24,000 nucleotides of DNA from Endozoicomonas acroporae (GCF_002864045.1 NZ_PJPV01000077.1:37287-61286); one strand, 5' to 3'. Shown: positions 2,470 through 24,000, numbered from the stretch's first letter. Notes: generated by a model not told the origin, from the letters alone. Program-made: numbers and translations.

Positions 2470-3012
2470 TTACCTTCTGTGATATTCGATCATGGCCTGA
2501 ATCAGCGCGTCTTTCCTGGCAAACTTGATGTCCTGTTTGCTCATTGGGAAATCCGGCAGCTGTCGTGCCATGTTTCTTAACTCTACTGTTCTGTGAGCCT
2601 TCAGTTCATCCAGCGTCATTTGCCCATTAAGAGCCGCAATGGATGAAGACTCAGGATCAGAGCCAACTGTCACTACCGCTTCTGCTGGCACCACAGCCTC
2701 TGGCCGGGCTGCCGCAGCGGGAGCAGGTTCTCTGATCGTACTACTGAGCAGCACATCCAGCTCCGTGGCCGGTCTGGCAATCACATGGGTGGATACCACT
2801 CTGCCAAGGCGATCGGCAGCCATGGTTCCCGCTTCTACTGCTGCTTTCACAGCACCAACGTCACCACGGATGATGACGGTCACCAGACCACCACCGGAAT
2901 TGTGTTTTGCAACCAGGCTGACATTGGCGGTTTTCAAACAGACATCCGCCGCCTCTACCGCCGGGAGGAAGCCAACGGTTTCAATAAAGCCTGCCGCCTC
3001 TTGTGTTCTCAT
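2470..3012 (-). CDS. BMC-H (PF00936-type) microcompartment shell protein with ~85-aa C-terminal extension
   Basis: Intact 180-aa ORF with RBS GAGAGGGG. The N-terminal 90 aa (AAGFIETVGFLPAVEAADVCLKTANVSLV...GGGLVTVIIRGDVGAVKAAVEAG...GRVVSTHVIARP) match the canonical EutM/PduA BMC-domain pattern. They are followed by an Ala/Pro-rich linker and a helical tail, MTLDELKAHRTVELRNMARQLPDFPMSKQDIKFARKDALIQAMIEYHRR. Confidence 0.88.
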   Translation of the reverse strand: MRTQEAAGFIETVGFLPAVEAADVCLKTANVSLVAKHNSGGGLVTVIIRGDVGAVKAAVEAGTMAADRLGRVVSTHVIARPATELDVLLSSTIREPAPAAAARPEAVVPAEAVVTVGSDPESSSIAALNGQMTLDELKAHRTVELRNMARQLPDFPMSKQDIKFARKDALIQAMIEYHRR

Positions 3013-3033
3013 CGCCAGCCCCTCTCAGGCTAA

Positions 3034-3386
3034 TCAGAAATGCTTGGGATTCTCTGCAACAAACCGTACAGCGTCAGCAAAGGCGTCACACGCCGCTGCG
3101 CACTTCAGCCGGGCTTGGACCCGCCAGCATGCCGATCACTTCACCGGCCAGTTTGGAGTTGGCATTGGCCGCGCCGCCGAAGAAGCTCTTGCCCATCACC
3201 ACAGACACTTCCGCGTTCTTGCACGCTTCATCCAGTGCGCAGTAGGTCACGTCATCCGCATCAGCTGTCAGGATGCCCAGGCTCTTCCAGCCCTCTGGCA
3301 TGCCCAGCTTTATCTGCCATTCTGGCATCAACATTAGGGATCATTTTCACCGCCAGTACACTGGCACCCAGACGATCACCTTTCAT
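3034..3386 (-). pseudogene. eutL: EutL (BMC-T shell protein) with frameshift and ~110-codon internal deletion
   Basis: ATG at 3386 with RBS GAGGAG gives MKGDRLGASVLAVKMIPNVDARMADK. The family sequence continues in another frame as LGMPEGWKSLGILTADADDVTYCALDEACKNAEVSVVMGKSFFGGAANANSKLAGEVIGMLAGPSPAEVRSG (ORF 3086-3334), with the frameshift near 3305-3312. After RSG a third frame reads CDAFADAVRFVAENPKHF-stop, which is the EutL C-terminus (compare E. coli ACNAFTDAVLEIARNP). The central ~110 residues are therefore missing, with the junction near 3088-3092. Confidence 0.8.
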
Positions 3387-3411
3387 TGCTCTACTCCTCT
3401 ATTCCCAAAGA

Positions 3412-4623
3412 TCAGAAACGGAAACCAACACCGCTGCACTTCTGCTCAAACATCTTCTTGACGATGTTGGCAATGTGCGCTCCCGCTTCTGCAGCCGGGG
3501 TCCCGCGACGATGGATATTGGAGATAACAGTACGGCCGGCTTCGGCCATGCCCACCTTGCCTTCATAGGTGATATAGGCACCCATGGACTCACCGGTAGC
3601 CAACCCTGGTCGTTCACCGACCAGCATCACCGTCACTTTGCTGTTGACCAGATCAGTCAGGTGATCCATGGCACCGACACGGCCAAACTTGATGAAGACA
3701 GGGTCGCCTACGCTCAGGCCATAACCTTCCAAGCCCTGCTGCAACGCAGGCAGGATGTTTTTCAGGTTGGCGGTAATCGCGCTGGAAGACAGACCATCAG
3801 CAATGACGATCTGAACGTCCGCACCTTTGCGGCACTCAGACTGAATTTTGGCAACGCCTTCATCACTGATCATGCGGCCAAGGTCAGGACGGGTAACGTA
3901 CATGTCCTTGTCATCACACTTGGAAGAGACAGCGATCAGACCGGTTTCAGTAATGAACGCTTCAGCCACTTCGTTGAAGACCGAGTCGATGGCCACCGCA
4001 TGGTCAGCGCGAAAACGCAGCATGGTTTCCGTCTCGTAACGGGGGCCTGCCTTGCCAATCCCCAGACGCGCGGGTGTTTTGGCTGCTTCGTTGCCTTTCT
4101 GGGAACCGGCGATGGACTGGAAAATCATGCCCGCAGGTGCACCACGCTCAACCGCTTCCATCTGGGACAGTACATGTGCCAGTACACAGTTCTGGGTTGG
4201 GATCTCAAACTTCTGCTTGATCTCTTCAAACTGGTGCAGACAGCGGTAGATACTGTCAGTGGTGTCATCCACCGGATTCAGACCGATAACCGCGTCCCCC
4301 ATACCGTAGGAAAGACCTTCCAGGGTAGAGATACGGATACCGTCGACGTTGTCCGTGGTGTGGTTTGGCTGGAGACGGGCTGCCAGAGTGCCATGACGAC
4401 CGATGGTCGTATTACAGGTGGCCAGTACTTCGATCTTGCTGGCCGCATAAATCAGATCGACGTTGGTCATCAACTTGGCAACCGCAGCGATCATTTCAGT
4501 GATTGATTCGGCGGCTATGCCCGCCAGTACGTCGCCAGAACGTTTTTCGTTGGCCTTGGCGAGTACTTCTTTAATGCTGGAAAAGCTGTAGACCTTTCCA
4601 AACAGTTTGGTTTTAAGAAGCAT
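3412..4623 (-). pseudogene. eutB/eutC: Deletion-fusion ORF: ethanolamine ammonia-lyase large subunit (EutB) fragments joined in frame to the EutC C-terminal ~220 aa
   Basis: From ATG 4623, MLLKTKLFGKVYSFSSIKEVLAKANEKRSGDVLAGIAAES matches EutB residues 1-40 (E. coli MKLKTTLFGNVYQFKDVKEVLAKANELRSGDVLAGVAAAS). The ORF then jumps to ITEMIAAVAKLMTNVDLIY...NPVDD...IPTQNCVLAHV...GAPAGMIFQSIAGSQKG, roughly EutB 105-260. It continues directly into EutC (TPARLGIGKAGPRYETETMLRFRADHA...VQIVIADGLSS...MLVGERPGL...ISNIHRRGTP...EQKCSG). The junctions lie at about nt 4504 and 4085. Confidence 0.85.
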
Positions 4624-17602: not shown

Positions 17603-17740
17603 TGTGTAATCTCCGCTCACCCTTAGCAGAGTCGAACGATGTTTTGCACGATCTGTCTGGATTCGGAGTTTGCGTCTTTCAACTCCGCTAAGGAAGAACG
17701 GAATAGCTGGCCATTGATCACTCACTGGCTTCCCAGTCTA

Positions 17741-17790
17741 ACGCCAAATTCAGCGGTGGCACCACAGGCACTGTCCACTTGAATTTTTTG
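17741..17790. repeat. Structured repeat copy A (unoccupied intron target; terminator-like on the plus strand after gltS)
   Basis: The sequence is ACGCCAAATTCAGCGGTGGCACCACAGGCACTGTCCACTTGAATTTTTTG. The outer arms AAATTCA/TGAATTT and inner GTGG/CCAC pair, followed by a T6 run. Its ends are shared with copies at 20400 and 22667. The extended unit 17736-17817 is bounded by GTCTAAC and GTTAGTT. Confidence 0.7.
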
Positions 17791-17895
17791 ATGGGCACTA
17801 TTTTTGAATTGTTAGTTTAAACAGTGAACTTTTATTCTAATAATCTAATCTAAACTCCATTTTTAATAAATTGTTAATAACTCTAGAGGCCTATA

Positions 17896-18540
17896 ATGCC
17901 ACCATCGATATCCGTAAATTCAGGTCTAACCACAATTACTCAAAAAAGACCAGCAAATTCTACATGCAATCCTCTAAAGCCCATTAAAACCGCTAAAATG
18001 ACGTCAGACACTGAGGTTTTGCCCGTTAATAATGAGAAGTTACGATTAAACAGCAACTTTATCGAATCGTCAGAAAACAAGACGGGTGTATTTTCATTAC
18101 ATTTAGCCAGAAAGTTTGACTTTGGATTTTCATATTTTCCAAAGAATAAAGGATTTTATACAACAACTTGCATAACCATCAACTCAATACCTATTAAAGA
18201 TAGATTTGTTTTTACTTTTTATACTGATGAAAATTACCCTAATCTCTGGGGAAAATCTGATAATGTAAAATCACTTTGTGAAAAAGATATAAAGTGTCAT
18301 TTGCCAAGATTACATAAAAAAGAAAAGCCTAAAGATGACCATTATCATGCTTTACTTTTAAAAGATGCTGACCCTGATTCTTTTTTAAAAACCACACTAA
18401 ATGAAATAGGATTGGCGGATCATGATGAAAATAATATTTTGCATTCAGCAGAATATTTTATCAAAAATCCCACTCAGGATTGTATTAATTTTACTGAAGG
18501 GGCATTATCTCAAAATGGTACATCTGAATCCTTGGAGTAG
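17896..18540 (+). CDS. Hypothetical 214-aa protein, AT-rich orphan
   Basis: Uninterrupted ORF in a strongly AT-rich segment, with AGAGG 7 nt upstream of the ATG. The N-terminal ~45 aa are Ser/Thr/Pro/Asn-rich with no acidic residue in the first 37 aa (first is Asp38). I recognise no motif. Confidence 0.5.
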   Translation: MPPSISVNSGLTTITQKRPANSTCNPLKPIKTAKMTSDTEVLPVNNEKLRLNSNFIESSENKTGVFSLHLARKFDFGFSYFPKNKGFYTTTCITINSIPIKDRFVFTFYTDENYPNLWGKSDNVKSLCEKDIKCHLPRLHKKEKPKDDHYHALLLKDADPDSFLKTTLNEIGLADHDENNILHSAEYFIKNPTQDCINFTEGALSQNGTSESLE

Positions 18541-19874: not shown

Positions 19875-20399
19875 GATCAAAGAACAAGTTGCAAAATGCG
19901 GCCTGCTCGGGTGAACATCCTCCGGAGTTTCCAGAGACAACGACAGTTGTTTAACAGATGCCATCCGAAACCACTTCCCCGATGATGACTCTCCGAGATT
20001 TGTTCAGGCCTTCAGTGACAAGAGGTCACCTACTATGCCTTATGCTGTCTTCTGCACTGCGATCACACCAGATTGCTCCCATGTCAGTTAATCCCGCAAC
20101 ACAGTACAGACCTCCCGGGGTAAGACACTTAACTTTCCTCGCGTAGACGCCCAATTTATAAAACGTATCCCGCTTGCAGATGGAGGGCTTAATGGTCACG
20201 GGCCCACTGGCCCAGAATACGTCACACCTCATACTGGATTCTTGTTCATCGCTCCGCGATTTTGCGTTGAGCTTCCTTCAGACCGGGTCGCGTAGACCCT
20301 GCCTTGCAACAACGCCCTTGCCCTTTCGCTAACCTTCGGCTCTGCGAAACCGGGTAAGAGGACTTTCACCTCTCTAGTTAAGTGCCATGCTCGGCAAAC
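19875..20399 (-). mobile_element. Group II intron 5' fragment (ribozyme domains upstream of the ORF only); second copy of the 21137-22666 intron
   Basis: It is collinear, with scattered substitutions, with 22025-22666. Examples are CCAGAGACAACGACAGTTGTTTAACAGATGCCATCCGAAA at 19930 and 22101, and GGTAAGACACTTAACTTTCCTCGCGTAGACGCCCAATTTATAAAACGTATCCCG in both. The 5' end abuts repeat copy B. It lacks a 110-nt segment present in the other copy. Homology fades at the point where the RT ORF would start. Confidence 0.7.
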
Positions 20400-20443
20400 A
20401 CGCCAAATACAGAGGCACCGAAGGCGTCCCCTGGAATTTATTG
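20400..20443. repeat. Structured repeat copy B (occupied on its left by the intron fragment)
   Basis: The sequence is ACGCCAAATACAGAGGCACCGAAGGCGTCCCCTGGAATTTATTG. It has the same ends as copies A and C. The centre is different but still pairs (GGCACC/GGCGTCC). Confidence 0.6.
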
Positions 20444-20523
20444 TTATGCATACTTACTAATTTGTTAGTGAATTTAATGTGCAATTTGCAATATCATTTT
20501 TTATTTCTCATGGGTTTGATAAG

Positions 20524-21099
20524 ATGAATATCTCATTAGGAGATTTAAACTCAATTCGCGAATTCCTGCCGGTAAATTTTGCAAGCGAATCAAAACCAAC
20601 AGAAAGGGAATTAAATTTCACCTATTCTACAGGATTGGATGAAGGGATAGAAGCAATAAACATTCTTGAACGATCTTGTGAGAAAAAAGATGTAGTGTCT
20701 ATTTTTTTTAGAGATAAAAATGCACTAGAACCTTTCAATAGTTCTGACTGTATGTTGTCACTTGATTATAATGAAACCGATGATTACATAATACGTCATT
20801 ATGATGATGAACATAATGATTCAATGCACTGGCCTGAAAACCCTCTCTCATTTCATTGCCATATTAAAAAACAACGAGATGAGGTTGATACTTTAGTAAA
20901 AGGAATATTTCAGAGGCACTCGAAATCTGGAGAAACTCATTACAAACAATATTTATTCTCTAAAAAGAATTTCAAAGAAAACCATCATCAAAATGGAATC
21001 GTATTCAAAAATGGCAGTTCGTCACACAATCTTTCTTGCAAGTCAATTTATGAGGCAGTGGAAGTTGATAAATCATTATTTAGGAATATTCAAGATTGA
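20524..21099 (+). CDS. Hypothetical ~191-aa protein, AT-rich orphan
   Basis: Uninterrupted ORF in a strongly AT-rich segment (the track ORF starts at GTG 20479; the first ATG is at 20524). It is Asn/Asp/Lys/His-rich with no recognisable motif. The RBS is weak. Confidence 0.45.
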   Translation: MNISLGDLNSIREFLPVNFASESKPTERELNFTYSTGLDEGIEAINILERSCEKKDVVSIFFRDKNALEPFNSSDCMLSLDYNETDDYIIRHYDDEHNDSMHWPENPLSFHCHIKKQRDEVDTLVKGIFQRHSKSGETHYKQYLFSKKNFKENHHQNGIVFKNGSSSHNLSCKSIYEAVEVDKSLFRNIQD

Positions 21100-21136
21100 A
21101 TTCTAATAAGTAAATCCAAGAGAGTGAAAAATAAAG

Positions 21137-22022
21137 GTAGCCTTTGCTGCCCCATTGCTTCAGGATATAACACCGTAATCGTCGTCGAATCCATTTGTCC
21201 AAATCTCGCAGAGGACTCAATATTTCGGCAATATCGAAATACGCTTTGACCACCACGGACGGTGGGAAGCCTGGTTTTGCAGGAGCAAAAACCAGCCCTA
21301 CCAAGCAGGGATTTTCTAAGCTCTGCAATAATCCGGATGATTGAATGGCCTCTCGTTCGACGGCTCAGTTGTTTTACGGTCTTTTTCAGTTTGGTAAATG
21401 CTTTATCACTGACTTTCAGCACTATGTTTGAAAGGACAGGCGACAAAGGGCCACCTTGTTGTACACCTTTCACACTGGCTTGCTTTGTTCCATTAATGCA
21501 AACACCCGCTTTCAGATAACGGTTGATTAACCAAAGCGGCGTGGCATCCTTATGGTGAGCTTTGAGTTGTGTCATCAATAAATCATGATTGACATGATCA
21601 AAGAATGCCTCAAGGTCGCAATCCACCACCCAGCTGTATCCGTCTCGTATGACTGATTGTGCGTGACGTATGGCTCGATGTGCATTCCGGTGAGGGCGAA
21701 AACCGTAACTGTTATTATGGAATTTGCTGTCCCACTCTTCCTGCATAATCTGGGCAATAGCCTGCTGTATCAGTCGGTCAAGTACGGTAGGAATACCCAG
21801 CTTGCGTTTGCGGCCATCCGGTTTTGGGATTTCCATCCGCAGCACGGGCTTGGGTTGGCAGGCTCCTTCTGCCAGTTGCTGCCGAATCTTTGGCCAGTGT
21901 TGTTTCAGGAAGTCTGGAAGTTCATCAACGGTCATGCCATCGATACCTGCGGCTCCTTTATTACGTTGAACCTGTTTCAGTGCACGTACCAGATTATTCC
22001 TGTCCAGTACCCGCACCATCAA
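21137..22022 (-). pseudogene. Group II intron reverse transcriptase/maturase, defective
   Basis: RT blocks 0-4 are present (NKGAAGIDGMTV, RKLGIPTVLDRLIQQAI, YGFRPHRNAHRAI, DLEAFFDHVNHDLLM, QGGPLSPVLSNIVL). The sequence then passes directly to KVSDKAFTKLKKTVKQLSRRTRGHS...AELRKSLLG, so the YADD block is deleted in frame. The maturase motif continues in another frame (KAYFDIAEILSPLRDLDKWIRRRLRCYILKQWG) after a 49-nt insertion. The C-terminus is lost. Confidence 0.85.
21248..21296 (-). repeat. 49-nt hairpin insertion element, copy 1 (inside the RT maturase domain)
   Basis: In the gene sense it reads GCTGGTTTTTGCTCCTGCAAAACCAGGCTTCCCACCGTCCGTGGTGGTC. Deleting it joins ...CTGCTTGGTAGG to AAAGCGTATTTC..., giving LLGRKAYFDIAE... 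in frame. It matches the copy at 23800-23848 at 45 of 49 positions. Confidence 0.65.
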
Positions 22023-22666
22023 AGATGAACAAAAGATGCTTTTTTACAGTGAAGAGCGGTTCAATCGGGTCTCCCGTTTCCGGTTCACCCTCTGGTGTAT
22101 CCAGAGACAACGACAGTTGTTTAACAGATGCCATCCGAAATCACTTCCCCGATGATTACTTTCCAAGATTTGTTCTGGCCTTCAGTGGCCAGAGACCACC
22201 TACGCGGTAACTGCTCCTGCGTTACTCTAGCTCCTGCATCCATGCAGTCGTATGTCGTCTGCTGATAGGGCTATGGATAGCCCGTATGCCGAAAATGCAG
22301 GAGCAATTTTCGGTCTTCTGCACTGCGATCACAGCGGATTGCTCCGTTGTCAGTTCATCCATTAACACAGTGCAGTCCTCCCGAGGTAAGACACTTAACT
22401 TTCCTCGCGTAGACGCCCAATTTATAAAACGTATCCCGATTGCAGATGGAGGGCTTAATGGTCACGTGCCCACTGGCCCCGAATACGTCACACCTCATAT
22501 TGGGTTTCTGTTCGTCGCCCCGCGATTTTGCGTTGGGTTACCTTCAGACCGGGTCGCGTAGACCCTGCCTCACGACAACGCCCTTGCCCTTTCGCTAACC
22601 TTCGGCTCTGCGAATACCTGGTAAGAGGACTTTCACTTCTCGAGTTAAGTGCCATGCTCGGCACAC

Positions 22667-22716
22667 ACGCCAAATTCAGCGGCACGAGCGGAGCGAGTGT
22701 CCGCTGGAATTTTTTG
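22667..22716. repeat. Structured repeat copy C (5' exon of two opposed group II introns)
   Basis: The sequence is ACGCCAAATTCAGCGGCACGAGCGGAGCGAGTGTCCGCTGGAATTTTTTG. AAATT+CAGCGG pairs with CCGCTG+(G)+AATTT, leaving one unpaired G, and there is an inner CAC/GTG pair. It is flanked directly by intron 5' ends at 22666 (minus) and 22717 (plus). Confidence 0.75.
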
Positions 22717-23370
22717 GTACGCCCGGCATGGGCATGAACTGATGGGGTGGAAGTCCTCTGTGGGAGAACCTACATCTGACTGGCGGTAAAGACGCCTGCT
22801 GATGACAACCACTAGCTTAAGGCAAGTGCAGTCCCGTGAGGGGCTGTGCGGAGGCAGTCTGACTGCAAAAGTGCGAGCCGACGTATAGAAATCGCATATA
22901 AGGCTTAGTCTCTGGGCGAGTGAGCCAAGGATCACAAAGCCCTATGGTTCGTGAGACACGGTAAATGCGGCGGTTGTGCACTGAAAGTTCATGTCCTTAT
23001 CCGGGGAGATCTGTTCAACATGCGATTGGTAATTCCCAGTTCTCAGCCACTGGTTACAACAGGCTCGGCGAACAGTGACTCATCATCCTGTTCGAGCAAA
23101 CCCGATGGCAACCAATAGCGCCAGCAGAGGCAACTCCGCATGGTGATTGGGCAGAAGTCAGCAGAGGCCATAGTAGTTGTACGACAAAAGTCATTAATGG
23201 ACGGGAAGTCGTCAGCGAAGGGCCGAACATCGATGACAAAGAGGAGACTGATTCCCTCAGGGCGATGCAGCCGTCCGGCGACTCACCGTACCTGGCGACA
23301 GAATCTTTAACCAGCTTTGAACCATGATCTACTAAATTGCGTACTTGAACCGGCTAATCTGGCAAGTGCA

Positions 23371-23420
23371 TGCGACTGCACGGATGCAGGAGGTAGTGGG
23401 GAGCAGGAGCCAGAGCCGGG
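23371..23420 (+). repeat. ~50-nt (47 or 50 nt) insertion in the RT N-terminus carrying the GCAGGAGC motif
   Basis: The sequence is TGCGACTGCACGGATGCAGGAGGTAGTGGGGAGCAGGAGCCAGAGCCGGG. It separates NLASA from KQVKSNKGAPGIDG, which are adjacent in the other RT (NLVRALKQVQRNKGAAGIDG). It causes the frame change and contains the hairpin CTGCA-CGGA-TGCAG. Confidence 0.4.
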
Positions 23421-23799
23421 AAACAGGTCAAAAGCAACAAGGGTGCTCCGGGTATCGATGGAGTCACCATTGAAGCTTATCCAGACTTTGCCAAACAGCA
23501 TTGGTCTTCAGTGCGTCAAGCCTTATTGGACGGAACCTACCAACCATCACCCGTGCGTCGGCATGTTATAGAAAAGCCGGACGGTGGTGAGCGTTTGCTG
23601 GGAATCCCTACCGTGATGGATAGGGTCATACAGCAGGCCATTTTGCAGGTGCTGACCCCTGTCTTTGATCCGGGTTTCTCTCCAAACAGCTTCGGCTACC
23701 GACCGGGACGGTCAGCACACGACGGAGTCCGTCAGGTTAAGCAGTTGATCAACAGGGGGCTGCATTACGCCGTTGACGTTGATCTGAGTAAATTCTTTG

Positions 23800-23848
23800 G
23801 CTGGTTTTTGCTCCTGCAAAACCAGACTTCCCACCTTCCATGGCGGTC
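23800..23848 (+). repeat. 49-nt hairpin insertion element, copy 2 (inside RT block 3)
   Basis: The sequence is GCTGGTTTTTGCTCCTGCAAAACCAGACTTCCCACCTTCCATGGCGGTC. Deleting it turns DLSKFF-G...(stop) into DLSKFFDTVNHDVLM, the conserved group II RT block, and links the two reading frames exactly. Confidence 0.7.
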
Positions 23849-24000
23849 ATACGGTCAATCACGACGTTTTGATGTCGAGGGTCTCCCGTAAGATCCACGA
23901 CAAACGCCTTCTGAAGCTGATTGGTCGCTACCTGCGCTCCGGTGTCATGATTGATGGCAACGTCTACCCTACCAGGGTAGGCATGCCACAGGGTGGGCCT

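Follow-up and report, generated by a model that had tools for sequence, protein, structure and literature searches.

Integron attC sites, which recur between single-gene cassettes, are imperfect palindromes. Besides an L box, an unpaired spacer and an extrahelical base, they contain R'' (RYYYAAC) and R' (GTTRRRY) boxes. Group IIC introns lack an endonuclease and retrohome just 3' of stem-loops, using an EBS1-IBS1 pairing of about 4 bp and one IBS3 base but no EBS2. Their reverse transcriptases have RT and X/thumb domains and lack DNA-binding and endonuclease domains, and their ribozymes are recognized by the ends 5' GUNYG and 3' AY together with a short domain V and a domain VI that contains a bulged A. 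The group IIC-attC introns reportedly include S.ma.I2, E.c.I7 and Kl.pn.I1, which are said to go back to Quiroga in 2008 and to Leon and Roy in 2009. The classical insertion site of this group is the attC bottom strand at R'', where the intron interrupts TTGT/T and runs antisense to the cassettes (PMC3001079; PMC7923331). On the Serratia marcescens plasmid CP083755, blaIMP-26 and its attC are separated by an intron that runs against the cassette direction; the bottom strand reads ...GAATTGT/GTACGCCC...CCCGAT/TAGAAAT (a slash marks an insertion point or intron end throughout), so that TTGT/T at R'' makes this a classical IIC-attC site. For insertion into the top strand, PMC7923331 gives, as of 2021, only one report, from a clinical integron of Enterobacter cloacae. 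Introns of pR148 (NC_019380) and pPp47 (NZ_MG516912) are of this kind, lying in cassette orientation after an aadA1 or aacA4 attC at ...CAAGCGT/GTGTG...CCCGAT/TAGAT, i.e., in the top strand at GT/T of R'. Although bottom- and top-strand insertions are each on record, our literature search found no account of the two sharing one site, nor of such double occupancy of opposite strands recurring in three genera or of how broad the top-strand clade is. Here, we describe an attC site in which each strand has been invaded by its own group II intron of a hairpin-seeking kind, the two introns being different and pointing apart.

The window analyzed, 24,000 nt from Endozoicomonas acroporae, is the last 24 kb of a 61-kb contig in a 6.05-Mb draft genome. 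An Rfam scan of the window returned three matches to RF02001 (group-II-D1D4-3), one on the plus strand (22830-22995, E 4.6e-26) and two on the minus strand (22391-22566, E 2.9e-21; 20125-20299, E 1.3e-19). The plus-strand match falls within an intron of the bottom-strand IIC-attC type (22717-24000) that opens with GTACG at 22717-22721 and comprises domains I-III (RF02001 and RF01998) and the N-terminal part of a reverse transcriptase (RT) before running off the contig end, its 3' exon thus lying beyond the contig. The nearer minus-strand match falls within copy C of the top-strand lineage (about 21141-22666), which has 22666 as its first base (GTGTG, the complement of 22662-22666) and consists of domains I-III and an RT remnant (ORF 21090-22022). 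The third match marks fragment B of the same lineage (19916-20399, minus strand), with domains I-III only (RF02001 and RF01998). Between the starts of copy C and the plus-strand intron there is nothing but a 50-nt hairpin (22667-22716), which folds on both strands (-11.3 and -11.2 kcal/mol; z -2.5 and -3.1). The junctions read ...GAATTTGGCGT/GTGTGCCGAGCATGGCAC on the minus strand (intron start at 22666) and ...GGAATTTTTTG/GTACGCCCGGCATGGGCATG on the plus strand (intron start at 22717), and each intron begins 4-5 nt past its hairpin.

The 5' boundaries were established by comparing intron copies. For the plus-strand intron, the boundary occurs in four copies in the window's genome with unrelated 5' flanks: the copy on contig C78 follows a terminator (AGAGCTC-ttgt-GAGCTC, then TTTTTTTTG/GTACG), that on C267 follows a hairpin of the same attC family (...CACCTGGATTTACTTG/GTACG), and that on C145 directly follows the 3' end of another copy. 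Since the boundary is constant across copies with differing flanks, the hairpin is exon and not intron. In the sister genome G005, the 5' exons of all 20 plus-lineage copies end in CTTG, and in 16 of 17 a T opens the 3' exon. The boundary of the minus-strand intron was read from the empty site A, where GGCGT/TAGAC stands against GGCGT/GTGTGCC at site C; about 30 homologues in other genomes start GTGTGCCG(A/G)GCA after ...CGT, with one exception after ...CAT. A first-pass annotation of the sequence had proposed two different group II introns head-to-head around a single 50-nt hairpin serving as the 5' exon on opposite strands, each starting a few nucleotides beyond the base of the same stem-loop as read on its own strand. 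The multi-copy comparison and site A place the true 5' ends exactly at the coordinates given there. Its further claims, that a near-palindromic target had been used from both sides and that copy A (17741-17790) is an unoccupied version of this target, likewise hold.

Both introns were assigned to class IIC, in agreement with the earlier annotation, as the GsI-IIC RT was the best PDB match for both RTs over their full length (E 4e-117 and 6e-137), with IIA and IIB RTs scoring about 1e-32 to 1e-40 against both (LtrA about 1e-38). The RTs of intact relatives (420 aa for the plus lineage, 441 aa for the minus lineage) end immediately before domain V and so have no endonuclease domain. As the same annotation had stated, the two RTs are clearly different proteins, with 50-53% identity over the N-terminal 210 aa and 45-46% over the full length. 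In a pairwise RT identity matrix of the two lineages and the introns of CP083755, pPp47 and pR148, which gives two clades, the plus lineage groups with the CP083755 bottom-strand intron (57%) and the minus lineage with pPp47 (76%) and pR148 (61%), at 45-46% identity between the clades. Judged by sequence, the plus-strand intron probably belongs with the classical IIC-attC introns, and the minus-strand introns belong with the top-strand introns of pR148 and pPp47. At the ribozyme level, RF02001 and RF01998 cover domains I-III, the introns open with GUGUG or GUACG and close with ...CCCGAU, and domains V/VI score 35 bits against RF00029, under its gathering score of 40.

Alignment of domain I identified a homologous 8-nt loop that differs between introns at positions 3-6, where four bases are complementary to the last four bases of each intron's own exon. 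In the plus-strand intron, loop GCCAAGGA (22924-22931) carries EBS1 CAAG (22926-22929), which pairs with TTTG here and with CTTG in other copies. In the minus-strand intron, loop GCACGUGA (22463-22470) carries EBS1 ACGU (22465-22468), which pairs with GCGT through one G-U; the same loop is found in the pR148 and pPp47 introns, whose 5' exons end in GCGT and ACGT. The canonical bottom-strand intron of CP083755 has loop GCACAAGA, in which ACAA pairs with TTGT. EBS1 and IBS1 therefore covary across three specificities (ACAA/TTGT, CAAG/YTTG and ACGU/RCGT), and IBS3 is T in nearly all cases. The first-pass annotation had suggested checking EBS-IBS complementarity at both exon ends, and the EBS1 loop is indeed complementary to each; the IBS1 strings it proposed, on the other hand, were longer than the approximately 4 bp that actually pair. 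The cut made by the plus lineage, TTG/TT, lies one base before the consensus TTGT/T, and the shifted EBS1 (CAAG versus ACAA) matches this G/TT register.

The hairpin at the junction is one of three in the window. Site C (22667-22716), the 5' exon of both introns, lacks the outer R-box bases, and its plus strand corresponds to the attC bottom strand. Site B (20400-20449) retains an intact R'' (GCATAAC on the top strand, GTTATGC on the plus strand) and is occupied on its top strand, at R', by intron fragment B. Site A (17736-17796, top strand on minus) is unoccupied, with R' GTTAGAC (complement of 17736-17742) and a degenerate R'' GCCCATC (complement of 17790-17796), and is the last attC before the core gene gltS (Pfam identification), 139 nt after it. 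A BLAST search of the window's genome with the hairpins returned only A, B and C; the similar attC-like hairpin on C267, of the same family, came up as an intron flank rather than by BLAST. The family was seen as abundant only in sister genomes, above all in G017, where about 38 copies spaced 0.45-2.7 kb apart occupy a 36-kb array with the consensus TAAC-GCCAA-ATTCAGCGGC...GCCGCTGGAAT-TTATT-GTTA and flanks that diverge beyond it into different or repeated units. An alignment of 33 copies from this array and site A showed R''/R' boxes, an unpaired spacer, an L box and a variable center. The repeat thus presents attC traits, namely R boxes, a bulged G and recurrence between units with one ORF each on one strand. 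An extended 82-nt unit (with GTTAGT 20 nt downstream) was also considered and was not supported, as conservation in G017 ends at G/TTRRRY. On three contigs, no match was returned when RYYYAAC...GTTRRRY with complementary arms was strictly required, and matches to a loose attC regular expression were mostly random.

Integron integrase genes (intI) were found above the NCBIfam cut-off as complete genes in G001 and G018 and as shorter matches below it in the window's genome, G005, G010 and G017; the G010 gene is frameshifted and lies beside the array, and on contig C35 of G001 the distance between intI and the family's first attC is about 4 kb. No intI was found on the window's contig, whose end interrupts the array. 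In the window's genome, intI is present only as a 193-aa N-terminal fragment on another contig (C284:16140-16721, minus strand; 188 bits to TIGR02249), followed by small AT-rich ORFs and an attC of another sequence type (GCTAACAAGTGCATGGTGCGG...GCAGGCGTTATGT). The arrays with R''/R' boxes and adjacent intI in relatives suggest that the window holds the distal end of a cassette array. By their sequence, hairpins A, B and C are accordingly attC sites of an Endozoicomonas chromosomal-integron family whose array ends beside gltS.

As attC is near-palindromic, its R boxes give no orientation, and the cassette direction was determined by other means. In G017, the attC variant covaries with the flank on its right side in the window-plus sense and not with that on its left, which places the owning cassette to the right of attC. 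In the same array, 26 of 28 ORFs are encoded on the strand that corresponds to the window's minus strand and stop just short of an attC, and in G001 and G010 intI lies upstream with the cassettes pointing away from it in the window-minus sense. Finally, the bulged G in the fold of site C sits in the 3' arm of the plus strand, and the aadA1 attC, as read in pR148, has its extrahelical base on the same arm of the bottom strand. All four tests identify the window's minus strand as the top strand of the cassettes. The opposite assignment, suggested by two orphan ORFs on the plus strand and a gene-intron-attC appearance, under which the minus-strand introns would have been of the classical IIC-attC type, was reversed by them. 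The orphan ORFs (17896-18540 and 20479-21099, plus strand) are AT-rich, encode 214 and 206 aa and each begin shortly past an attC; both are antisense to the inferred cassette direction, a point against our reading of the locus. Neither had a Pfam match, and they showed no significant similarity to each other, so paralogy is unsupported.

With this orientation, the plus-strand intron occupies the attC bottom strand at R'' (...YTTG/TT), antisense to the cassettes, and introns B and C occupy the top strand at R' (...GCGT/T), in cassette orientation. All three are decayed, B and C being truncated at their 3' ends and the plus-strand RT being frameshifted. Neither B nor C keeps domains V-VI, with no RF00029 match in copy C. 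In the RT remnant of copy C, the YADD block is missing and 49 nt are inserted at 21248-21296, and homology between copy C and an intact copy in G018 stops at query position 1526. Fragment B shares 89-91% identity with copy C; mutations have altered its 5' end (now GTTTG) and its EBS1 loop (now GCCCGTGA). The plus-strand RT frame is broken by small insertions at about 23371-23420 and at 23800-23848. No intact RT of either lineage was found in the window's genome assembly. Full plus-lineage copies of 1931-1933 nt with RTs of 420-422 aa are present in G005 and G010, and a complete occupied site in G010 reads CTAAC...GGAATTTCTTG/intron/TTATGC, with an exon end of CTTG.

Several short elements were observed inside the introns. 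A REP-like element of about 50 nt (about 22199-22251) is inserted in intron C and has no counterpart in fragment B; it has about 74 BLAST matches genome-wide, many at contig ends. A segment of the plus-strand intron (about 23369-23420) is about 81% like this element over 42 nt, and no other genomic copy of it was found. A hairpin-bearing insertion of 49-51 nt (GGCTGGTTTTTGCTCCTGCAAAACCAGAC...) occurs in the window's genome at four places, only inside introns (window 21248-21296 and 23800-23848; C78:37241-37291; C145:225-275). It splits the RT gene in both lineages, but at positions that are not homologous: plus-lineage RTs are interrupted after DLSKFF, the minus-lineage RT within the thumb domain. 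The insertion sits at the same position in all three plus-lineage copies and is absent from the 1931-1933-nt copies of G005 and G010. On contig C21 of G018 (about 2560-4430 of the extracted locus), a third intron type (RF01999, domain V at 4352-4427) begins GTGTGTCATGAG right after the domain V hairpin of an intact minus-lineage intron, a nested insertion that replaces that intron's own 3' end.

The two lineages differ in their distribution. The complete 7.2-Mb Endozoicomonas genome G005 holds more than 25 near-identical plus-lineage copies, mostly at CTTG/T sites with no adjacent hairpin and several inside other repeats, which is unusual for a class C intron. Among 15 distinct sites there, 14 had no attC-like hairpin, and mean fold energy equaled that of the control; for the plus lineage a hairpin is thus helpful and not strictly required. 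For the minus lineage, a scan of one genome per species found 32 loci with close relatives of its RT, and the 5' end could be located in 29 of these, giving 30 sites. The top-strand type therefore looks widespread, as its clade is found at about 30 attC sites across Gamma- and Betaproteobacteria.

Five of the 30 top-strand sites, of which G018 holds three and a Sansalvadorimonas MAG and Denitrificimonas halotolerans JX-1 one each, have an intron of the bottom-strand type on the other strand, 44-50 nt upstream. The partner in the Sansalvadorimonas MAG is an ORF-less derivative. In JX-1, a 48-nt attC separates a full-length bottom-strand intron, which shares 70% identity with that of CP083755 over 1.95 kb, from an opposing top-strand intron whose RT match is complete. 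The whole junction, i.e., the minus-intron 5' part, attC and the plus-intron 5' part, is found at four places in G018 with three hairpin sequences. Within the genus, attC sites are found in all four states (empty, top only, bottom only and both), for which independent double insertion is the simplest account, with some G018 copies looking locally duplicated.

Head-to-tail arrangements were also observed. The 2119-nt contig C145 consists in its entirety of a collapsed, circularly permuted head-to-tail intron with a direct ...CCCGAT/GTACGCC... junction. In G010 (C1:3994-3997 kb), two full-length introns lie head-to-tail in one attC, and in G018 arrays of at least four 761-nt ORF-less derivatives lie head-to-tail beside paired attC sites.

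It is highly probable that two IIC lineages retrohomed separately into opposite strands of site C. Because attC is an imperfect palindrome, each strand would fold into a stem-loop when single-stranded, making both strands targets. Position, strand, lineage, EBS1 complementarity and recurrence are read directly from these loci, and a retrohoming route compatible with IIC biology can be proposed. An intron of the IIC-attC type (5' GUACG, EBS1 CAAG) would have reverse-spliced into the bottom strand after ...TTTG, at G/TT of R'', and one of the second IIC lineage (5' GUGUG, EBS1 ACGU) into the top strand after ...GCGT, at GT/T of R'. In each case, the ribonucleoprotein would recognize the folded single-stranded hairpin and reverse-splice 3' of it, probably through single-stranded DNA at replication forks with nascent strands as primers. 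As each insertion falls outside the stem, it would leave the other strand's hairpin and IBS1 intact, resulting in two introns diverging from one attC.

Separate insertion was weighed against the possibility, which we consider unlikely, that a module already formed (the 5' parts of two introns with attC between them) was copied through segmental duplication, cassette shuffling or homologous recombination of dispersed intron copies. Such copying may have contributed within G018, where the hairpins of the four paired sites include an identical pair and a third that departs from it at 3 bases, and where four of the five minus-lineage copies are paired, suggesting local duplication there. Across sites, however, the hairpins differ in sequence and length (50 nt in the window, 50 nt with a different loop on C72 of G018, 44 nt on C21 of G018, 44 nt in Sansalvadorimonas and 48 nt in Denitrificimonas), as do the flanking introns (full-length versus ORF-less, 70-90% identity), and the coexistence of all four occupancy states in the genus also speaks against a single propagated unit. 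Alternatively, the repeat might have nothing to do with integrons and be a REP-like or terminator hairpin, with both introns simply following terminators. The plus strand of site C does score as a terminator-like hairpin followed by a T-run, the plus lineage is also found after the classical terminator on C78, and BLAST finds only three copies of the repeat in the window's genome besides the attC-like hairpin on C267. The long cassette arrays of sister genomes, in which R''/R' boxes flank units with a single ORF each, all on one strand, and intI lies next to the array, make this reading very improbable.

Equally little probability attaches to the junction being an assembly chimera of intron repeats collapsed at a contig end. 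The window does end inside the plus-strand intron at the end of its contig, and C145 demonstrates that collapse into a permuted contig has taken place in this assembly, but hairpin C is unique and lies between more than 1.2 kb of each intron in one contig, and the same architecture was assembled independently in four other genomes, including contigs of at least 100 kb and one isolate genome. Separate retrohoming into both strands thus remains the preferred reading. Promoters that face outward are known from the 5' regions of bottom-strand IIC-attC introns (Leon et al. 2010, PMC3001079), and double occupancy might be a selected, mutually stabilizing state in which promoters drive the partner or attC is frozen against cassette excision. 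We regard this extension as rather doubtful; a consensus scan for outward promoters gave one weak site against 0.9 expected by chance, which leaves them unsupported. If the pair were selected, the top-strand lineage would represent a second, widespread attC-specialized IIC clade.

Overall, both strands of attC appear to be natural retrohoming targets, and two IIC lineages share the site out between them. A 4-nt loop is all that separates their specificities: bottom-strand insertion at R'' goes with CAAG or ACAA, top-strand insertion at R' with ACGU. Once both introns are in place, neither R box remains part of the stem, which probably locks the cassette junction; with both R boxes split from the L box, IntI should not recombine site C. 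The empty, single, double and tandem sites described here offer naturally occurring substrates on which to test how the strand and register of a hairpin are read by IIC introns.

When compared to the IIC-attC group, the plus-strand intron is alike in its position in the bottom strand at R'', antisense to the cassettes, in starting GUACGCCC... as the CP083755 intron does, in having an IIC-type RT with no endonuclease domain, and in the occurrence of its lineage after an ordinary terminator (C78), as has been reported for IIC-attC introns. It differs in that the lineage inserts one base earlier, at the IntI crossover point (TTG/TT), with EBS1 CAAG and not ACAA, in its spread to many hairpin-free CTTG/T sites in G005, and in an RT that is just 57% identical to that of the canonical plasmid intron. 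Introns B and C share with the pR148 and pPp47 introns the cassette orientation, insertion at GT/T of R' after a 5' exon ending ...RCGT, the 5' end GUGUGCCG(A/G)GCAUGGCAC, the EBS1 loop and an RT of 61-76% identity; unlike the top-strand attC introns of class 1 integrons, they lie in a chromosomal Endozoicomonas array and are both truncated. The E. cloacae case (Rodriguez-Martinez et al. 2012), as summarized in PMC7923331, is likewise an insertion into the top strand of attC. As in tandem IIC introns, including the G010 pair and the G018 761-nt arrays, the hairpin and IBS1 survive insertion and can be reused, but here the second insertion took place on the opposite strand and by a different lineage, producing a divergent pair.
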